Below are positions 378 through 8,433 of a stretch of 8,433 nucleotides of DNA, in pieces. Position 1 is the stretch's first letter. Every line of letters starts with the position of its first letter. The DNA comes from a virus. The stretch lies in the UHGV virus genome UHGV-1374310. The stretch is one strand, 5' to 3'. The notes under the pieces were generated by a model. That model was not told the DNA's origin and did not search any database. It saw nothing but the letters and a program-made list of their open reading frames with translations. The position numbers were made by a program, and so were the translations under genes.

Positions 378-420
378 CCTTTTGATCCTTTGTTGCTGTT
401 CAAAATCCGCACAATAAAGA

Positions 421-447
421 ACGTGCAGTGTAGGTAATACTGCACGT
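421..447. promoter_or_regulatory. Perfect inverted repeat ACGTGCAGT-9 nt-ACTGCACGT, next to a second 6-bp-arm palindrome GTACCA-TTCG-TGGTAC (450-465); operator or terminator/attenuator
   Basis: Arms 421-429 and 439-447 are exact reverse complements. It lies between the stop of the small minus-strand gene (466) and the start of the membrane-protein gene (377), and on the minus-strand transcript is followed by UCUUUAUU. Confidence 0.4.
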
Positions 448-465
448 TTGTACCATTCGTGGTAC

Positions 466-648
466 TTAATCCTTTTGTTTGGCAGACATGAGATCTTCTG
501 CTGCATCTTTAGAGTAGTTATCAATCAGATAACCTAAAATCTCTGTCCATGTAATTGTTTTTCCTAGTTTTACACTGGCATTTATAGCCAGTCGTTCTAG
601 TTTCATTTTTCTTTCTTCCGTCACGTTATAAGTCGTGCGCTTTGCCAT
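466..648 (-). CDS. Small (60 aa) putative DNA-binding transcriptional regulator, ribbon-helix-helix-like; candidate phage repressor
   Basis: ORF track protein MAKRTTYNVTEERKMKLERLAINASVKLGKTITWTEILGYLIDNY...; size and a strand-helix-helix-like pattern; it sits upstream of and opposite to gII, the position of rstR in CTXphi. SD is weak. Fold assignment is inference. Confidence 0.5.
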   Translation of the reverse strand: MAKRTTYNVTEERKMKLERLAINASVKLGKTITWTEILGYLIDNYSKDAAEDLMSAKQKD

Positions 649-695
649 TTTTTACGCTCGTTCAATGCAATATTTGAAGTGAGTATACATGCTCA

Positions 696-775
696 TGAAC
701 TCATATCATCCAATCCTCTTGAACTCACTAGCTCACTGGTGTAATGTTAAAACACTAATGAACTACTGAACTCAT
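696..775. promoter_or_regulatory. Control region upstream of gII: four direct repeats of TGAACTCA(T/C)/TGAACTAC and a candidate sigma70 promoter
   Basis: TGAACTCAT at 696-704, TGAACTCAC at 720-728, TGAACTACT at 759-767, TGAACTCAT at 767-775. Candidate -35 TTGAAC (719-724) and -10 TAATGT (742-747) with 17-bp spacing; one repeat overlaps the -35. Confidence 0.4.
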
Positions 776-817: not shown

Positions 818-1870
818 GTGATCGATTGGCTTACCGGGATTTTCCCTTGCACACACAAACCGCTTCCGGCGGGGAGTGTTGTCAGCGTTGATGCTGACGG
901 TGCAATTGAGTGGGAAACCGTTAAGCGACTGACTGTTCGCGGTTCGCATGAAGCAACGATGAAAGTACGATCGATAGGATCTAATGGCGAAGGTAAAGCG
1001 ACACATTTGTACATTGATGGTAATCCTTCCAAGTTTCTGCAGGGGCATTCTGTTGTTGGGTCGGATGATATACAAGGGCTCATGTTGACGGTCTATGCCA
1101 GGATTTTATCCTTATTGAATATTCCTCATGATTTAGCGTCTTATAAAGCCGTTATGGCAGGTCAGTATAAAATTTCACGTATTGACATTAATTACATGTA
1201 TTCATTATCTACGCTGGAAAATGTCAGATCATGGCTTTATGCCGCCGAATTTAAAGCTAAAACACGCCATGGTCGCGCATGTGGGAAAGGCGGTACAGTT
1301 TATTTAGGTAAAAACTCCCGTCGATGGAGTCTGAAATTTTATTCAAAATATGATGAACACGTTTCTGGTAAAAAAGGGCACCAGATAGCCGAAGAGTTTG
1401 TACGAGCCGGGTTACTGGACTGGACGAAAGATAAATTACGTATTGAATTAACATTAAGAACAACTGAGCTTATTGATTTAAATTTAACGCTTGGCGCTAA
1501 CTGGAATATGAAAACACCACGTCAATTATTCTCTGAATATGTAGGGAGAATAGAAATGAATCAGAATGCTATTTTAAGTGATGAAAAAATAACGAAACTG
1601 CCAAGAAAAATACAGTCAACTTATTTACTTTGGAAACAAGGGGCTAACATGAAAGAAATGTTACCTCATAACACTTTTTATCGCCATAGAAGAGAATTGC
1701 TTTCGTTCGGTATCGATATTAATTTCTATTGTGATTCACCAGACTCTAATAACGTTGTTCCGCTAATAAGAACGCTGGAAGCCAAGCCAGCGGAAATCCC
1801 CTTATGGATTTATGAGAAAGGTTTTATTTTCGATTACAACCGTATTTCGCACGCCAGTAGCTGGCATTAA
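818..1870 (+). CDS. gII: Replication initiation protein pII (rolling-circle nickase)
   Basis: Recalled M13 pII aligns: VIDWLTGIFPC vs MIDMLVLRLPF at the N-terminus, KFLQGHSVVG vs KVLQGHNVFG, SRIDINY vs SRIDATF, NNVVPLIR vs NNVVPLVR. Start set at GTG 818 (GAGGA at 806-810, 7 nt spacing); the track's GTG at 776 is an upstream extension. Confidence 0.9.
   Translation: MIDWLTGIFPCTHKPLPAGSVVSVDADGAIEWETVKRLTVRGSHEATMKVRSIGSNGEGKATHLYIDGNPSKFLQGHSVVGSDDIQGLMLTVYARILSLLNIPHDLASYKAVMAGQYKISRIDINYMYSLSTLENVRSWLYAAEFKAKTRHGRACGKGGTVYLGKNSRRWSLKFYSKYDEHVSGKKGHQIAEEFVRAGLLDWTKDKLRIELTLRTTELIDLNLTLGANWNMKTPRQLFSEYVGRIEMNQNAILSDEKITKLPRKIQSTYLLWKQGANMKEMLPHNTFYRHRRELLSFGIDINFYCDSPDSNNVVPLIRTLEAKPAEIPLWIYEKGFIFDYNRISHASSWH
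1508..1870 (+). CDS. gX: pX, in-frame internal initiation product of gII (predicted by analogy with Ff)
   Basis: Internal ATG at 1508 gives a 120-aa C-terminal product; the NNVVPL motif falls at about the same distance from this Met as in M13 pX (111 aa). No strong SD; call is by analogy. Confidence 0.45.
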   Translation: MKTPRQLFSEYVGRIEMNQNAILSDEKITKLPRKIQSTYLLWKQGANMKEMLPHNTFYRHRRELLSFGIDINFYCDSPDSNNVVPLIRTLEAKPAEIPLWIYEKGFIFDYNRISHASSWH

Positions 1871-1881
1871 AGGAAAGTAAT

Positions 1882-2199
1882 ATGTCTAATTATGGTCTTT
1901 TCGTTAAGGGTAAAATGTTGGGAGCCCGCCAACGTAATAAAGTTAATGGTCAGGGCTATTATAATGAAATTGGTATTGGCCTTGAAATACCTGATGGTTT
2001 TGGTGGTACAAAGCAGGATCAAATTATTATTCGAGTTTCTCAGGCTCTCGTTAACGCAGGTCTAATGAACCAGGCGAATGCTTTCATTGGGAAATTAGTT
2101 CAAATTCCTGTCTATGTCCGTGCGTGGTCAATGGAGGGTAGGGAAGGTGTAACTTATAATGTTGCTTCCGATGGTGGCATCGCAGAGATCAAAGGTTAA
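1882..2199 (+). CDS. gV: Single-stranded DNA-binding protein (gV-like, divergent, 105 aa)
   Basis: Position directly after gII with SD AGGAA (1871-1875). Only a short stretch ARQRNKVNGQGYYNEIGIGLE resembles the DNA-binding region of M13 pV (TRSGVSRQGKPYSLNEQLCYVDL) and Pf3 SSB; the rest is not recognisably alignable by eye. Confidence 0.65.
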   Translation: MSNYGLFVKGKMLGARQRNKVNGQGYYNEIGIGLEIPDGFGGTKQDQIIIRVSQALVNAGLMNQANAFIGKLVQIPVYVRAWSMEGREGVTYNVASDGGIAEIKG

Positions 2200-2402: not shown

Positions 2403-2645
2403 ATGAAAATTCTGTCTACTGTTAAATATAAAATTGCTCTGGCTTCAACTGCGCTTTTTATTTCTGCAAGTTCTTTTGCGGCTGAAGGCGCTACAGGTGG
2501 TACTGATTATGCAGGTCAGGCAATGGATGCTTTGTTGACTCAGGCAAATGATCTCATTGGTAAAGTATGGCCTGTTGTTGTTGCTGTGGTTGGCGCTGGG
2601 CTTGCCATTCGTATTTTCAAAAAATTCTCTTCAAAAGCGGTTTGA
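2403..2645 (+). CDS. gVIII: Major coat protein pVIII precursor (IKe-like)
   Basis: 26-aa signal peptide ending SFA then AEG; mature C-terminus ...[26 protein letters not shown] is close to the IKe coat C-terminus (...[11 protein letters not shown]) as recalled. SD GGAG at 2391-2394. Confidence 0.95.
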
Positions 2646-2691: not shown

Positions 2692-3951
2692 ATGAGAAGG
2701 AAAATATTAATTCTTTCCGCTGTCCTCATTTCTCCTTTTTCACATGCTGAGTCATGGGAAAGCATTACTAAATCCACTTATCAAAGTTCTGCCTATGCTG
2801 AAAGTAAGCAAATAACCAATCAGGATGGCTCTAAGATAACGGTTTACTATATTGATGCTGCTATGCAGGCCTCCGCTTGTCAGGGTGCTAAATCCAGTGC
2901 TCAGAGTGTATTTACTCGGATTAAACCAACTTATGAGGGTATCTGGCCTGATTCTGAATTCCGTCTTGTTTTTACTGGCGATTGTACTTACAGCGATTCA
3001 CCAGGGCAGAAGGATAAATATTGGTCTTTAACGGCTTATATTGTTGGTAATATTCAGCGTTCTGTTCCTGATGAAAAACCTACTGACCCGACACCAGAAG
3101 AAATTTGTGAAGCGAAGCCGCCAGAAGAAGGTGTATTTAATAATGTTGATTCATATGATGGTGGTCGCTATATCTACTATAACGGCTGTGAATATGAGGC
3201 TACTGGTGTCATTGTTTGTCAGGGTGATGGTACTGTTTGCGCTGCAACATGGAAGCCTACAGGTGCTGTAGCTGACCCCTCTGATAAACCCTCAACCCCC
3301 CAAAATGGTGGTGGTGAGTCCGGTGGTGGTGAGTCCGGTGGTGGTGAGTCTGGCGGTGGTGAGTCCGGTGGCGGTAGTTCTGGCGGTAGTTCTGGCGGTA
3401 GTTCTGGCGGTGGCTCTAGTGGTTCCAGTCTTTCTAAAGGTGATATTCAGTCTGCGATCGAAGGTGCTTCACCCAAAATAGCCAGCGATATTCATGATAA
3501 ATTAACGGAGAAAGACACTTCATCAGATGATAAAAAAAATGCCGATGAACAAACCAGGAATAATATAAATCGTCTTGACGATTCCATTAACAATCTTACG
3601 CGGGGGGCTGGCCGTTTTGCTGACCCTTCAGGTGGTGATTCTCGTTATGGAAAGGGCGACTCTGAATTAGATGGCGCTTCTACTTTAGCTGATTCTGAAT
3701 TGGGAATTGAAAAGGATTCTCACGGTGCTTTATGGGAAGCATTTTTAAATAAAGGTGCTATGCTGCCTAATTTACCCAATGGTAACGGCTGCTCTGATTT
3801 TATTATTTTTCCCGGAGAGGTTTATCAGATTGATATTGGTTGCGATAAATTACTGACTATTAAAGATGTTCTTTCATGGGTTTTTTATTGCCTTACGTTC
3901 TGGTATGTCTTTACTTCTTTAACTTCATTGCTTCGCAAAGGGGGTGAGTGA
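2692..3951 (+). CDS. gIII: Minor coat / adsorption protein pIII
   Basis: Signal peptide [19 protein letters not shown]; internal motif [29 protein letters not shown] resembles the M13 N1 (TolA-binding) motif YEGCLWNATGVVVCTGDETQCYGTWVPIG; glycine-rich linker (GGGES x4 then SSGG units); C-terminal anchor [21 protein letters not shown]...[14 protein letters not shown] resembles the M13 pIII C-terminus. The track's start at 2548 is an N-terminal over-extension. Confidence 0.9.
3307..3429 (+). repeat. In-frame tandem repeats inside gIII (15-bp GGTGGTGGTGAGTCC units, then 12-bp GGCGGTAGTTCT units) encoding the Gly/Ser/Glu linker
   Basis: Directly visible near-identical tandem units with wobble-position variation. 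Confidence 0.85.
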
Positions 3952-4292: not shown

Positions 4293-5387
4293 ATGGCGGT
4301 TTATGTAGTAACAGGCAAATTAGGCTCAGGCAAGACACTTGTTAGTGTTTCCAGAATACAGGAAAGACTTGCTAAGGGTTGTCCTGTTGCCACTAATCTT
4401 GATCTTAAATTGCATAATATGCCTATGGTTGGGCGTTATGCGAAAAAAACGCGCGTTATTCGCATTCCTGACAAGCCTTCATTAAATGATTTACTTGCTA
4501 TTGGTATTGGGAATACATCTTACGATGAATCCCGTAATGGCCTCCTTGTACTTGATGAATGTGGTACTTGGTTTAATTCCCGCTCATGGGGTGATAAAGA
4601 CAGACAACCTGTTATTGACTGGTTTTTACATGCCAGAAAATTAGGCTGGGATATTATATTTTTGATTCAGGATATTTCGATAATGGATAAGCAAGCTCGT
4701 CTGGCGCTTGCTGAGCATGTTGTTTATTGTCGCCGTTCAGATAAATTAAACATTCCTTTTGTTGGCTCCATTATGAATTTGGTTTCAGGGGCGAGATTTT
4801 CTTTACCAAAGGTACACTTTGGCATTGTCAAATATGGTGATAATGTTAATTCAATCACTGTTGATAAATGGATATATACAGGAAAATCTCTTTATTCTGC
4901 TTACAATACCAAACAAGCGTTCACAGATAATTATCCTCATGGCGCATTTTCGCTTTTGCCACCATTTATCACGCACGGTCAATTTTCTGTTCACAGAGGA
5001 TTTAATTATTATATGCGCCTCACTAAAATTTATTTTCGCAAATCGAACCGTCTTATATTAATGCTTTCTTTTTTGGCGCTGGGGCTTGCGTTTGGTTTCT
5101 GGCTCCAGTCTGGAAAGAATGTTGATGAAATCTCAGCTATTAAATCTGCTTATGCTGAACAGGCGAGGGCGGTAACGCCTGATTCGTCCAGTGACTTACC
5201 CCGACTTTCTATTAATTCTTTTTCACAACTTGGCTTTGACGTTTCCGTTACGTTTGTTGATGCAAAAGGTATGAAATATCAGTATTTTGATTTGATTAAA
5301 GATGGTTATTCCGTTGATATTAAAGATGCCTGTCGTGTTGTTATTAGAAAAGGCCGTTATTTACAGACTGTTACCTGTCAGGAGTAA
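4293..5387 (+). CDS. gI: Assembly ATPase pI (Zot-like), Walker A GKLGSGKT
   Basis: Strong similarity to recalled M13 pI throughout (MAVYVVTGKLGSGKTLVSV..., LLVLDECGTWFN, IDWFLHARKLGWDIIFL, AEHVVYCRR). ATG follows the gVI stop directly. Confidence 0.95.
   Translation: MAVYVVTGKLGSGKTLVSVSRIQERLAKGCPVATNLDLKLHNMPMVGRYAKKTRVIRIPDKPSLNDLLAIGIGNTSYDESRNGLLVLDECGTWFNSRSWGDKDRQPVIDWFLHARKLGWDIIFLIQDISIMDKQARLALAEHVVYCRRSDKLNIPFVGSIMNLVSGARFSLPKVHFGIVKYGDNVNSITVDKWIYTGKSLYSAYNTKQAFTDNYPHGAFSLLPPFITHGQFSVHRGFNYYMRLTKIYFRKSNRLILMLSFLALGLAFGFWLQSGKNVDEISAIKSAYAEQARAVTPDSSSDLPRLSINSFSQLGFDVSVTFVDAKGMKYQYFDLIKDGYSVDIKDACRVVIRKGRYLQTVTCQE
5013..5387 (+). CDS. gXI: pXI, in-frame internal initiation product of gI (predicted)
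   Basis: Internal Met at codon 241 of pI (MRLTKIYFRK...), the same codon position as the M13 pXI start (MKLTKIYLKK...), just before the transmembrane segment. Confidence 0.5.
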   Translation: MRLTKIYFRKSNRLILMLSFLALGLAFGFWLQSGKNVDEISAIKSAYAEQARAVTPDSSSDLPRLSINSFSQLGFDVSVTFVDAKGMKYQYFDLIKDGYSVDIKDACRVVIRKGRYLQTVTCQE

Positions 5388-5394
5388 TATTATT

Positions 5395-6660
5395 ATGCGC
5401 TCTGTTATTGTTGCTTTTTTATTTGCCTGTTCATTCTGCGTTTCTGCTGAAACTGTTAATTTAAATAATTCATCTGTTCGCTCATTTGTTCAGCGGTATT
5501 CTTCAAAAACTGGCAAGCCTGTTATTGTTAATCCTGATATTAAAGGAAACGTAACCGTATTTAATGCTGATGTTAATCCAACAAATATTGATGATTTCTT
5601 TAAGTCTGTTCTGAATGCTAACGGTTTTGTCATGCTTTCTGGCAATCCTGCGGTAGTCTCTTTGCCGTCTAAATTACCTTCACAGATGGTTTCGGATTCC
5701 GATGATTCTGATAACCAGTCTTATGATACTTTTCCTTCTGAGCCATCTTACCAGCCAGTACCTGTGGCGCTTACGGTCAGAAATTTTAAGCTGACAAAAG
5801 TTAGATCGTCCGATGTTCAGCAACTGATTAAAATTTATCTTGATTCTAATGGTGGTGGTAATGTCGTGGATTATCCAGGCAATAACTCGCTGATTGTTTC
5901 TGCGCCTGACGAGCTGCTGCCGGTTCTGTCCGATTTTATCAATTCTGTGGATGTTGCCCGCGATCAGGTTCTCATTCAGTCGCTGATGTTTGAAACCAGC
6001 TTGTCTGATGGCGTTGATTTATCGTTTGCGGCAGGTTCTGCATCCGGTCATAAGGTTGCGGGGGGCTTTAATACTTCTGCACTGGGTAGCGCTCTTTCTA
6101 CGGCGGGCGGTTCTTTTGGTATTTTTGATGGTAACGTGTTGGCGCTGTCTCTGCGTGCTGTCCAGAGTAATTCACGCTCTAAGGTGATTTCAACGCCGCG
6201 TATTCTTACTCAGTCTGGTCAGACTGGTTACATTTCCGTAGGTAAGAATGTGCCGTTTATCACCGGAAAGGTAACGGGCGAATCTGCCGGGGTAAATAAT
6301 CCGTTTCAGACTATCGAGCGTCATGATGTTGGCGTTTCTCTCAAGGTAACGCCTGTTGTCATGGGTAACGGGCAACTAGTTCTGACTATCGACACTCGCG
6401 CTGATTCAATCAGCAATGATGATCAGGCATCCGATATTATTACTAATCAGCGCCAGATTCAGACGACAGTCCAGATTAAGGATGGTCAGACGTTGTTATT
6501 GGGGGGGCTTATCGATTCATCGTTCAGCAATGCCGAGCGTTCAGTTCCAGTTATAAGTAAAATTCCTCTTATAGGCTGGATTTTCAGTAGCAAGGCAGAC
6601 AGCAATGAACAGCGTATTATGTATATTTTGCTTACAGCACATATCATTCGTCCACTTTGA
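5395..6660 (+). CDS. gIV: Outer-membrane secretin pIV precursor
   Basis: Signal peptide MRSVIVAFLFACSFCVSA; extensive similarity to recalled M13 pIV (LDFSFAAGS, GGSFGIF, PRILT.SGQ.G.ISVG.NVPFITG.VTGESA.VNNPFQTIER, TNQR.I.TTV...DGQTLLLGGL, SKIPLIG). SD AGGAG at 5380-5384. The track's start at 5302 is an over-extension overlapping gI. Confidence 0.95.
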   Translation: MRSVIVAFLFACSFCVSAETVNLNNSSVRSFVQRYSSKTGKPVIVNPDIKGNVTVFNADVNPTNIDDFFKSVLNANGFVMLSGNPAVVSLPSKLPSQMVSDSDDSDNQSYDTFPSEPSYQPVPVALTVRNFKLTKVRSSDVQQLIKIYLDSNGGGNVVDYPGNNSLIVSAPDELLPVLSDFINSVDVARDQVLIQSLMFETSLSDGVDLSFAAGSASGHKVAGGFNTSALGSALSTAGGSFGIFDGNVLALSLRAVQSNSRSKVISTPRILTQSGQTGYISVGKNVPFITGKVTGESAGVNNPFQTIERHDVGVSLKVTPVVMGNGQLVLTIDTRADSISNDDQASDIITNQRQIQTTVQIKDGQTLLLGGLIDSSFSNAERSVPVISKIPLIGWIFSSKADSNEQRIMYILLTAHIIRPL

Positions 6661-6703
6661 TGGATAGCGGGTAGGTGCGTGAGCCCTGCTCGCTATCCAT
6701 CAA
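6657..6703 (+). terminator. 13-bp-stem hairpin overlapping the gIV stop: terminator and/or packaging-signal-like element
   Basis: TTGATGGATAGCG (6657-6669) and CGCTATCCATCAA (6691-6703) are exact reverse complements with a 21-nt loop. Ff phages have the packaging-signal hairpin, which also acts as a terminator, in this position after gIV. No T-run follows. Confidence 0.5.
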
Positions 6704-6729
6704 ATGGACATTATTGATTGGGGTAACTA

Positions 6730-7038
6730 ATGGATTCTTATGGGATTTTATCTGCTCTGGCAGAACGAACGATTACAGCGGAAGAAGCAAAAACAATGAC
6801 ACTTGCAGCCAGAAGTTCTTCGGCTCAGGTAAATGAAGCATCACTTGCTCTGTTACTGATTGATAATACTCTGGATGCGATCAAAGCAGCTGCCAGTGAA
6901 GGGAAAGGATACACTTTACTTCCTTCTTATGAGATTTCTGTAAAAGCCATTGATTTAGCAGAAGAATTTTTAAGGAAACAATGCGGCTATGTTATTGATA
7001 ACCAGAATGGCGTAAGGACGGTCTATTGGTTTATATGA
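6730..7038 (+). CDS. Hypothetical protein (102 aa), accessory/cargo gene with no recognised family
   Basis: ORF track protein MDSYGILSALAERTITAEEAKTMTLAARSS...; starts about 27 nt after the hairpin; weak SD. Confidence 0.45.
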   Translation: MDSYGILSALAERTITAEEAKTMTLAARSSSAQVNEASLALLLIDNTLDAIKAAASEGKGYTLLPSYEISVKAIDLAEEFLRKQCGYVIDNQNGVRTVYWFI

Positions 7039-7155
7039 TAACCCCGGACAATGACAAAACTTGCTTTTGTTAGTGTCAGGGGTTGGCCAAGCCGAACAAT
7101 TCTGTTTTTTTAGCGTTATTGCTGATTCGGCGCGGCAGCATTACGAGGAGATAAA

Positions 7156-7389
7156 ATGCAATTTTTCACATCCAGCGATACTGTAATGTTATGTGCGAAG
7201 ACCTGCGATCGCTGTGGTCGCCATGCGAAGACGGTGGTAGATGACATTGAGTTCAATGAGTTTCTGTCTGTTAATCACTTAGCTGGATACGGTTCAATTT
7301 TTGGTGACAGTAATCGCTTAAAACTGGATTTATGCCAACATTGCCTGAAAGACGTCCTGGGCCAGTGGATTACGGTCTGTGACCAATGA
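7156..7389 (+). CDS. Hypothetical small zinc-ribbon protein (77 aa; CxxC...CxxC), accessory/cargo gene
   Basis: Strong SD GAGGAG 6 nt before the ATG; Cys pairs CDRC (near the N-terminus) and CQHC (near the C-terminus). Confidence 0.6.
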   Translation: MQFFTSSDTVMLCAKTCDRCGRHAKTVVDDIEFNEFLSVNHLAGYGSIFGDSNRLKLDLCQHCLKDVLGQWITVCDQ

Positions 7390-7427: not shown

Positions 7428-7460
7428 GGTGCGCATAATGTAGGACTCGTTATGTTGAAA
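7428..7460 (+). other. dif-like XerC/XerD recombination site with an extended 11-bp central region (candidate attP half-site 1)
   Basis: GGTGCGCATAA-TGTAGGACTCG-TTATGTTGAAA versus recalled E. coli dif GGTGCGCATAA-TGTATA-TTATGTTAAAT: XerC arm 11/11 plus the next 4 nt identical, XerD arm 9/11. Confidence 0.6.
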
Positions 7461-7494
7461 AGGCCGCTGCGAAAATCGAATCCCGCAGCGGCCT
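7461..7494. terminator. 11-bp-stem hairpin between the two dif-like sites; likely bidirectional terminator for the convergent gene blocks and apex of the putative attP fold
   Basis: AGGCCGCTGCG (7461-7471) and CGCAGCGGCCT (7484-7494) are exact reverse complements with a 12-nt loop; on the minus-strand transcript the stem is followed by UUUUCAACAUAAC. Lies between convergent genes ending at 7389 and 7537. Confidence 0.6.
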
Positions 7495-7521
7495 CTTTAG
7501 CATAACGTCATTGTGCGAACC
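7495..7521 (-). other. Second, inverted dif-like site (candidate attP half-site 2)
   Basis: Reverse complement of 7495-7521 reads GGTTCGCACAA-TGACG-TTATGCTAAAG: XerC-like arm 9/11 and XerD-like arm 9/11 to recalled dif, 5-nt centre; opposite orientation to site 1. Confidence 0.5.
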
Positions 7522-7536
7522 AAAATCTTTTAGATT

Positions 7537-7728
7537 TTATTTTCCGCAAGCAGGGCAGACGTTTGCATCACCAAATTGCATTGTAGTGCTTTTATTCACA
7601 CTAAAACTTTCGAATCCTTCACGTAAGGATTTTTTTTCACCATTAAAAAGATATGTTGTAAATTCTTTTTTCTCCGCATCAGTCAATTGAAGCCAGAGAG
7701 CTTTGACTTGATCTACTTTATAACTCAT
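7537..7728 (-). CDS. Hypothetical small protein (about 63 aa) ending in CPACGK; second gene of a minus-strand accessory pair
   Basis: Start chosen at the internal ATG (MSYKVDQVK...) because AAGGAG sits 6 nt upstream and overlaps the stop of the preceding gene; the track's longer form from 7770 would overlap that gene by 31 nt. Confidence 0.5.
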   Translation of the reverse strand: MSYKVDQVKALWLQLTDAEKKEFTTYLFNGEKKSLREGFESFSVNKSTTMQFGDANVCPACGK

Positions 7729-7739
7729 TTGTTTCTCCT

Positions 7740-8315
7740 TTATTTCACGAGATTGCCACAATTTGTGCAACCTTTCCGCTTGTTAAATTTAGTCGGTATT
7801 TTATTGCAACGTACGCATTCTTTATTTTTCTTTACCAGAATGTCGAACATAATCCGTTTCTTATCATTATTGCTAACATATTTTTCATCTTCCTTGGCAT
7901 TGAAGTCATCTTTTGATTTTATCACTGAAAACAAATGGTTAGCGGGTTGCTGGTTGCCTGTCTTTGATTTAAACATGCTCGACAGTTCGCCATACAAATC
8001 AGTTAGGAGTTTATTGAAAGAGTATGATTCCAGATATCGAGATAAATTTTCATCAGTCTTCATGACCAGCGTGTATAAATTAGAAAGCAAGACTATCACT
8101 GATAATATCCCTGTGCCCCAAACTAAAAAATCAAAATATTTGGAGCTGTGATCAACCGATGCGTATCCTCCAACTAGGACAGGGAGGGCAAATGATAGAT
8201 ATTGGTTTATTTTTAAAAGTCGTTCGCTTTTTTTGATTTTAGTTTTTAAGTAGTCAGCTGTTCCCTCTGCGTAAAATTTCCTGAGGTCCATTTCTTCATT
8301 CGGTTGCATACTCAT
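7740..8315 (-). CDS. Hypothetical 2-TM membrane protein with C-terminal C4 zinc ribbon (about 191 aa); candidate toxin, exclusion or defence effector
   Basis: ORF track 7740-8321 (GTG); I prefer the ATG at 8315 (AGGTG upstream). Two hydrophobic helices (LSFALPVLVGGYASV, LVWGTGILSVIVLLSNLYTLV), then a charged region ending CVRC...CTNC. Visibly AT-rich. The opposite-strand ORF 7687-8151 looks like a shadow. Confidence 0.6.
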   Translation of the reverse strand: MSMQPNEEMDLRKFYAEGTADYLKTKIKKSERLLKINQYLSFALPVLVGGYASVDHSSKYFDFLVWGTGILSVIVLLSNLYTLVMKTDENLSRYLESYSFNKLLTDLYGELSSMFKSKTGNQQPANHLFSVIKSKDDFNAKEDEKYVSNNDKKRIMFDILVKKNKECVRCNKIPTKFNKRKGCTNCGNLVK

Positions 8316-8433
8316 CTTCACCTTTCACAATATCAAACTAGCGCGGGCTGAAATTATAAAAAACCTGTAAATTCAAGTGATTGACATTCACCAATAATAT
8401 GAATTCCTTCTGTGCCACCAATAAAGCAGACCG

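Follow-up and report, generated by a model that had tools for sequence, protein, structure and literature searches.

A probable Ff-type plus-strand origin, diverged in sequence, lies beyond an antisense regulator gene upstream of gII in a filamentous phage of Escherichia coli

The DNA analysed here is virus genome UHGV-1374310, a stretch of 8,433 nucleotides (nt) that is referred to throughout as the window, and it carries the genes of a filamentous phage of Escherichia coli. A first-pass annotation had recognised gII, the gene for the rolling-circle initiator pII, and had found no Ff-type plus-strand origin; it proposed that the origin might lie in the repeat-containing region directly upstream of gII (649-775), or among hairpins after gIV. 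We describe a two-hairpin element at 420-465, further upstream and on the strand that codes for gII, which we consider with a probability of about 0.85 to be the core of the plus-strand rolling-circle origin, of Ff type and I2-2 subtype. The features of this part of the window are listed below, with the lengths of proteins in amino acids (aa).

398-419, plus strand: semi-conserved A/T-rich box TTCAAAATCCGCACAATAAAG on the 5′ side of the hairpins
420-465, plus strand: two-hairpin element, probable origin core, 184 nt to the left of the flagged 649-775
420-448, plus strand: hairpin 1, counterpart of Ff hairpin D, with stem AACGTGCAGT/ACTGCACGTT, extendable to 12 base pairs
435-436, plus strand: predicted pII nick site T435^A436 (AGGT^AATAC), indicated by two covariance models and by natural junctions
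450-465, plus strand: hairpin 2, the inverted repeat GTACCA-TTCG-TGGTAC, counterpart of Ff hairpin E
466-648, minus strand: 60-aa antisense gene (phrog_2503) with the stop codon abutting hairpin 2; the product is putatively a small regulator that binds DNA
649-817, no strand assigned: probable divergent promoter/operator region that separates gII from the antisense gene and contains the flagged 649-775 with its GAACTCA repeats
818-1870, plus strand: gII, encoding pII (350 aa, GTG start), with Pfam domains Phage_CRI and G2P_X_C
1340-1342, plus strand: codon for the predicted catalytic Tyr175 of pII, aligned to Tyr197 of M13
1556-1870, plus strand: gX, from an internal in-frame start in gII (ATG after GGGAGA), corresponding to the annotated gene X of I2-2 and to the G2P_X_C domain

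The gII product matched Phage_CRI at 8.8e-70 and G2P_X_C at 2.1e-29, in agreement with its earlier identification as a pII homologue, and RefSeq has chosen the identical GTG start in identical prophages. Tyr175 of this protein aligns with Tyr197 of M13 gpII, at a position that was invariant in 19 homologues. Tyr197 is the residue that becomes covalently linked to the nicked 5′ end in M13 (PMC5405960).

Searches by primary sequence returned no canonical origin. The 34-nt Ff core CTTTAATAGTGGACTCTTGTTCCAAACTGGAACA had no match in the window on either strand when up to three mismatches were allowed, and the 16-nt left half of the core was likewise without a match on both strands. Smith-Waterman alignment of the 48-nt cores of M13 and IKe to both strands of the window gave scores of 23 and 25, against means of 24.5 and 25.4 for dinucleotide-shuffled sequence. 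The top local alignments (1477-1506, 6724-6749 and others) scored the same as shuffles, and were rejected as origin candidates. When the window was compared with phage genomes by megablast, only short matches in gIV were produced, and nothing informative on the origin. The canonical Ff/IKe nick-site core is thus missing from the window, as had been concluded by eye. The wider claim that there is no Ff-type origin anywhere in the window does not hold: structure-aware searches of the same DNA do find one, at 412-468 on the plus strand. A proper search therefore recovers the Ff-type architecture, in a sequence that is not the canonical one.

The element reads AACGTGCAGT (420-429), loop GTAGGTAAT, ACTGCACGTT (439-448), a single T, and then GTACCA-TTCG-TGGTAC (450-465). 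An invariant motif, GTAATAC (434-440), spans the junction of the hairpin-1 loop and its 3′ arm. Folding of 410-470 as DNA gave −15.8 kcal/mol (z = −5.7), and none of 200 shuffled sequences folded as well; the T435/A436 step falls within a 5-nt loop of the predicted single-strand fold. Position 465 is the last of the element, and the antisense open reading frame (ORF) has its stop codon directly next to it, from 466. On the other side, the A/T-rich box at 398-419 is partly kept (AAAAT..GCAC.AA) in loci with unrelated sequence further upstream and is absent from phage I2-2; it may be part of a termination or recognition region.

To relate the element to mapped origins, we used two covariance models built from separate sets of sequences. 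R1 was made from 35 distinct elements of the window/I2-2 type and contained no Ff or IKe sequence; R2 was made from M13, IKe and five IKe-like contigs only, and contained no window-type sequence. The sole significant match of R2 in the window was 412-468 on the plus strand (25.3 bits, E ~7e-6 in 51.6 kb), and the same model recovered the equivalent element in I2-2 and in other relatives. In the opposite direction R1, which scores the window at 66.4 bits and I2-2 at 52.8 bits, found its best match in M13 at 5759-5811 (18.9 bits, E 0.0025) and its best match in IKe at 6547-6599. The core origin of M13 (domain A) occupies 5769-5819, and gIIp nicks it between T5780 and A5781 (PMC5405960); in IKe, 6554-6599 is annotated as the viral-strand origin hairpins. 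Both models align the element with hairpins D and E of Ff and IKe, and not with A, B or C. Both also place M13 T5780/A5781 on window T435/A436, with R2 setting TAATA on 435-439.

Conservation was examined in non-coding segments of the window, which were compared with 38 viral contigs whose pII is 85-100% identical to that of the window. An island around 420-465 was present in essentially all of them. Its 46 nt were invariant in about 30 IMG/VR loci, even beside an unrelated left or right flank. Hairpin 2 shows two compensatory base-pair changes that follow the pII subgroup, GTACCA/TGGTAC being found where pII is 94-100% identical and GTCTCA/TGAGAC where it is 85-91% identical. A genome-wide scan extended the comparison to pII relatives as little as 28% identical, in 56 loci that come mostly from marine Gammaproteobacteria, and the element was found in most of these by profile and then by R1. 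At E <= 0.01 R1 produced 69 matches across 58 loci, every one of them on the gII strand. In distant relatives the element usually lies 15-90 nt upstream of gII, and where pII is 28-52% identical the hairpin-1 stem covaries while GTAATAC is nearly invariant. Compensatory versions of this stem include GTGCAG/CTGCAC, GGACGG/CCGTCC, GGCCAG/CTGGCC, GTCGGG/CCCGAC and GGAACG/CGTTCC. The R1 alignment had a covariation score of 0.363, whereas shuffles scored 0.159 and slid controls 0.08-0.12; 130 cells were altered on both sides. There is one copy per phage unit: the tandem prophage of E. coli strain C10 contains two, 8490 nt apart.

Two natural junctions bear on the position of the nick. In contig L030 (= L113), at 1640-1760, the 3′ half of the origin is joined to a copy of the promoter of gII with the initial 103 nt of that gene; across the point of fusion the sequence is ...GGGAAACAGTAA|TACTGCACG, and GTAA is common to both parents. 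In L049, at 5690-5740, an independent junction (..CCCG|TAATAC) fuses unrelated sequence to origin homology that starts at (G)TAATAC. An exact 18-mer scan of viral contigs yielded the I2-2-like origins of L122 and L124 and a few chance matches, and no further junction. The L030 arrangement looks like the product expected if replication had overrun the origin and been closed at a look-alike site in gII, and both junctions look as if termination had gone wrong, or a strand had been transferred, at the nick site. They support, without proving, a nick within GT^AA.

Our identification of 420-465 as the origin core draws on its presence as a unique element on the gII strand, its structure and covariation, the reciprocal model matches and its synteny. 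From these we infer binding by pII, the exact phosphodiester bond that is cut (T435/A436), the linkage to Tyr175 and the roles in initiation and termination. Replication would begin when pII binds the inverted repeat 450-465, and the stem next to it, in the double-stranded replicative form, and the DNA would be distorted, or hairpin 1 extruded. The plus strand would then be cut by pII in GTAATAC, most likely at T435/A436, and Tyr175 would be joined to the 5′ end. A host polymerase could extend the 3′-OH all the way round, passing first the regulator gene, next gII to gIV and then the dif-like site and accessory genes, and at the regenerated origin a second cut by pII and ligation would release a unit-length single-stranded circle. 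Where prophages stand in tandem, initiation would take place at the origin of copy 1 and termination at that of copy 2, as for CTXphi. The apparent gap would thus be closed by an ordinary Ff-style origin that has diverged, 46 nt long with a predicted nick bond, and that was missed by eye.

Several points weigh against this identification. The accessible literature contains no experimental data for this phage group and no mapped origin for CUS-1, YpfPhi or the UPphi phages. The link to Ff appears in structure-aware profiles whose E-values are only roughly calibrated, and similarity in primary sequence is at the level of chance. R1 did not recognise an origin in the IKe-like phage PEar1; it also gave no origin match in If1, which has no annotated pII homologue. 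The junction evidence consists of two events with 1-4 nt of microhomology each, and places the nick only within GTAA. A crude consensus scan of the window for an AT-rich enhancer that binds integration host factor, as in Ff domain B, gave no match to WATCAANNNNTTR; the position 3′ of the core is taken by the antisense ORF, as in IKe, and the enhancer may not be required. Lastly, hairpin 1 is followed on the minus strand by CTTTATTG, and could double as a terminator for the antisense gene. A terminator scan of the window did not call the hairpin at 420-448, which may still have this secondary role.

Two other structured regions of the window enter into the alternatives considered below.

6656-6704, plus strand: hairpin after gIV, a perfect inverted repeat, very likely the packaging (morphogenetic) signal
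7039-7155, plus strand: two-hairpin intergenic region, conserved at 77-100% across pII subgroups (DNA fold z = −4.1), tentatively a candidate minus-strand origin

The flagged stretch 649-775 could itself be the origin, with the GAACTCA repeats acting as pII-binding iterons. The repeats are real and clustered: the window has four exact copies where about one is expected, and three of the four lie inside this stretch, in a span of 78 nt (697-703, 721-727 and 768-774, with a degenerate copy at 760-766). They are directly upstream of gII, the usual site of the origin in most distant relatives, and GAACTC loosely resembles GGACTC of the Ff core. The stretch is missing, however, from phages with pII 85-91% identical, which have another repressor and intergenic sequence in its place but keep 420-465. 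Among the 38 contigs, 649-817 was present only in those with the same 60-aa antisense gene, and in the group with pII 86-87% identical, which includes Yersinia pestis loci, the slot holds an unrelated 148-aa helix-turn-helix (HTH) repressor and a different intergenic sequence. Neither R1 nor R2 matches 649-775, and it lacks a TAATA-in-hairpin motif. The repeats are confined to loci with the phrog_2503 gene, as would be expected of operators for that protein, and in the most diverged homologue of the cassette they are invariant while the spacers change; a sigma-70-like site for the antisense gene is found on the minus strand at 709..682. It is therefore highly improbable that the origin lies here, and for 649-775 the most likely role is that of a divergent promoter/operator region, belonging to an exchangeable regulator cassette in which the GAACTCA repeats would serve as operators.

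A reading of the 420-465 hairpins as nothing but a terminator, for the antisense gene, the upstream accessory genes or both, with the true origin elsewhere or unrecognisable, seems to us very unlikely. It would account for the location of the element immediately past the stop codon of the antisense ORF and for the T-rich run that follows hairpin 1 on the minus strand. It does not account for an element that is unchanged beside at least three unrelated downstream cassettes and beside unrelated upstream genes, nor for a GTAATAC loop that is invariant and strand-specific; in distant relatives the element lies between a divergent repressor and gII, or right before gII, where it cannot terminate an antisense gene. 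The reciprocal matches to the mapped Ff and IKe origins would also be left unexplained, and the terminator scan, as noted, passed over 420-448. There is just as little to recommend the element as a minus-strand origin (a single-strand priming signal) or as a packaging signal. Such signals do form stable hairpins on the viral strand, but the R1 and R2 alignments are specific to hairpins D and E, and other regions are available for both functions. The packaging signal can be assigned to 6656-6704, whose core, CTTTGA..GGGTAGGTGCG..AGCCCTGC, recurs in the morphogenetic signals annotated in IKe and I2-2, so that the hairpins after gIV, the second place proposed for the origin, appear to have this different role. 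The two hairpins of 7039-7155, also conserved, could provide the minus-strand origin; no likeness of this region to the Ff/IKe minus-strand origin was noticed by eye, and no alignment was run.

With 420-465 taken as the origin, it is conceivable, though on balance unlikely, that the site is also a recombination joint for the exchange of modules, at which pII cuts and rejoins DNA at the origin and at pseudo-sites, aberrant termination giving rise to the junctions. This proposal is compatible with the unrelated cassettes that flank the conserved island, with the GT|AATAC junctions, and with the pairs of origins that bracket a repressor in marine loci. In the last of these, two origin-like elements per unit were observed (L063 4292-4986 and L081 4301-4985; also L072, L077 and L054), and in L063 and L081 the pair encloses an HTH repressor gene that lies on the minus strand just upstream of gII, a layout that falls between those with the origin next to gII and those with it beyond the repressor.

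A separate observation on the marine Gammaproteobacteria is that L059, L077, L054, L091 and L082 contain perfect tandem arrays with units of approximately 2.85-3.4 kb. Besides an origin, a gII homologue and an HTH repressor, the L059 unit, the only one inspected, has a few small ORFs; no ORFs of morphogenesis size were seen in it, and no search of the small ones against domain libraries was made. These short-unit arrays resemble RS1-like satellites or integrated rolling-circle mini-replicons.

The antisense gene next to the element belongs to a family shared with IKe. Its 60-aa product matched phrog_2503 at 3.6e-34, and an unannotated 65-aa ORF on the minus strand of IKe (L003, NC_002014; 6601-6798) matched the same family at 2.1e-07; the two proteins matched each other in BLASTP at 8e-05. 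The IKe ORF occupies a stretch that is usually treated as non-coding origin/enhancer DNA. The 60-aa protein had no match in Pfam and no sequence match in PDB. Its AlphaFold monomer consists of an extended N-terminus and two helices (mean confidence score, pLDDT, 78.6), and a Foldseek search of PDB with this model returned nothing significant; a ribbon-helix-helix repressor, which would have a beta-alpha-alpha fold and read DNA with an N-terminal strand, is an unproven interpretation.

The remainder of the window has the gene order given here.

1882-2199, plus strand: gV
2403-2645, plus strand: gVIII, one of the small coat genes
between the coat genes and gI, plus strand: gIII, followed by gVI
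4293-5387, plus strand: gI
5395-6660, plus strand: gIV
6730-7038 and 7156-7389, plus strand: two small ORFs 3′ of gIV, without Pfam function
7428-7460, plus strand: dif-like XerC/XerD site GGTGCGCATAA-N11-TTATGTTGAAA, the attachment/tandem-junction site
7537-7770 and 7740-8321, minus strand: accessory ORFs near the dif-like site, without Pfam function

The minus strand contains three accessory ORFs in addition to the 60-aa ORF at 466-648. Both the start and the end of the window fall inside a single minus-strand ORF, and the window is therefore one complete, circularly permuted unit. It is 99% identical to E. coli chromosomal prophages, including those of UM146 and strain C10, and is a complete unit of a dif-integrating filamentous phage of the CUS-1/YpfPhi group. 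The C10 prophage adjoins hipA/dif and is a tandem array whose unit measures 8490 nt. The dif-like pattern had one match in the window and none in shuffled sequence. The site, GGTGCGCATAA-TGTAGGACTCG-TTATGTTGAAA, has exact XerC and XerD arms and an 11-nt spacer, and shares its XerD arm with a 24-nt inverted repeat (7448-7507). Integration of the group occurs at dif, and an imperfect dif site is present at the junctions between tandem copies of YpfPhi (PMC4266046), which the 11-nt spacer fits.

The left-hand accessory genes vary among prophages that are otherwise 99% identical, and UM146 has other genes there; the product of 7740-8321 carries the RefSeq name 'mobilome CxxCx(11)CxxC protein'. Within gIII, 3291-3423 contains tandem 15-nt and 12-nt repeats encoding Gly/Ser linkers, and the annotated attachment protein varies in length among strains. 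The difference of 57 nt between the window (8433) and the C10 unit (8490) probably comes from these linker repeats. Two metagenome-assembled genomes carry close relatives of the window pII: L045, labelled 'Candidatus Nanosynbacter' (99% identical), and L050, labelled 'Aerococcus' (86%). Their placement in unrelated taxa is likely to reflect mis-binning or contamination and not host range.

The location of the origin has practical uses in a clinically relevant group of phages, which comprises CUS-1 of extraintestinal E. coli, YpfPhi of Y. pestis and the UPphi phages. It is needed to predict which prophage arrays could release phage DNA, as two origins in tandem are required in CTXphi, and it is useful for phagemid/helper systems and for the annotation of these phages. 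The family signature, hairpin-GTAATAC-TTTTGT-hairpin, could be used to find origins beside pII-family genes in metagenomes.

The closest known system is phage I2-2 (Lineavirus I22), whose pII is 56% and whose gV is 39% identical to the window proteins (gV E 2e-30). Upstream of gII and on the strand of that gene, both phages have the origin core ACGTGCAGTGTnnGTAATACTGCA(A)CGTTTGT; it is 94% identical over 34 nt (I2-2 2666-2699) and has the same two hairpins and the same GTAATAC. The I2-2 element (2664-2714) lies about 390 nt upstream of its gII, and an antisense ORF between the two (2720-2918) looks alike by eye, although it is frameshifted in the record. I2-2 differs in that it does not integrate, has a genome of 6.7 kb and lacks a dif site and accessory genes; in its origin, an A is bulged from hairpin 1 and one pair of hairpin 2 is mismatched. 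Approximately 100 nt upstream of this origin, I2-2 also keeps part of an IKe-type origin, a relic of its right half (2540-2579; GGGGTGTACTCTTGTTGCAAAATCGCAAC, scored by R2 at 18.5 bits). The window has no such relic; in I2-2 it looks like the scar of a replication-module exchange. In 1992 Stassen et al. reportedly found that the I2-2 replication module was not homologous to those of IKe and Ff. The structural homology of the origins described here would tie the I2-2 module to the Ff paradigm.

Ff, IKe and the window share a common plan: a hairpin, T^AATA at the junction of loop and 3′ arm, a spacer of 1-2 nt, TTGT, and a second hairpin of the form GTNNCA-loop-TGNNAC. The consensus of this second hairpin, TTGT-NNCA-TTT(T)-TGNN-AC, is common to the window, M13, IKe and IKe-like origins, and hairpin 2 of the window corresponds to hairpin E of Ff, the location of the pII-binding repeats in that group. 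In all three the origin is on the gII strand, and the initiators belong to the same Pfam family with their catalytic tyrosines aligned. The sequences differ. The stems are unrelated (GAGTCCAC in Ff, AACGTGCAGT in the window), the loop is shorter in the window (GTAGGTAAT as compared with GTTCTTTAATA in Ff), and the canonical core GAGTCCAC..TTTAATAGTGGACTCTTGTT is not found in the window element. The window pII is approximately 23% identical to those of M13 and IKe and about 60-70 aa shorter. The earlier surmise that the origin had diverged together with gII thus agrees with what was found, a different sequence on the same architecture. The IKe origin runs to 6599 and the phrog_2503 ORF that follows it ends at 6601, the corresponding ends in the window being 465 and 466; the window element is therefore placed as the IKe origin is, to the nucleotide.

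The organisation of the region also recalls that of CTXphi (Ig-1/rstR/ig-2/rstA), in which an intergenic element with the nick site is separated from the initiator gene by a divergently transcribed repressor. The order in the window is the same: origin (420-465), minus-strand gene (466-648), intergenic region (649-817) and gII (818-1870). The likeness is one of function and organisation only. The cassette gene of CTXphi encodes an RstR-like HTH protein, whereas that of the window encodes the 60-aa phrog_2503 protein. In both CTXphi and the window group, a repressor and its operator form a swappable immunity cassette, and integration at dif occurs in tandem. Two origins are needed in CTXphi for release of the single-stranded circle from the chromosome (PMC8265649), and the similar layout suggests that phages of the window group would likewise need a tandem array with two origins to release their DNA.

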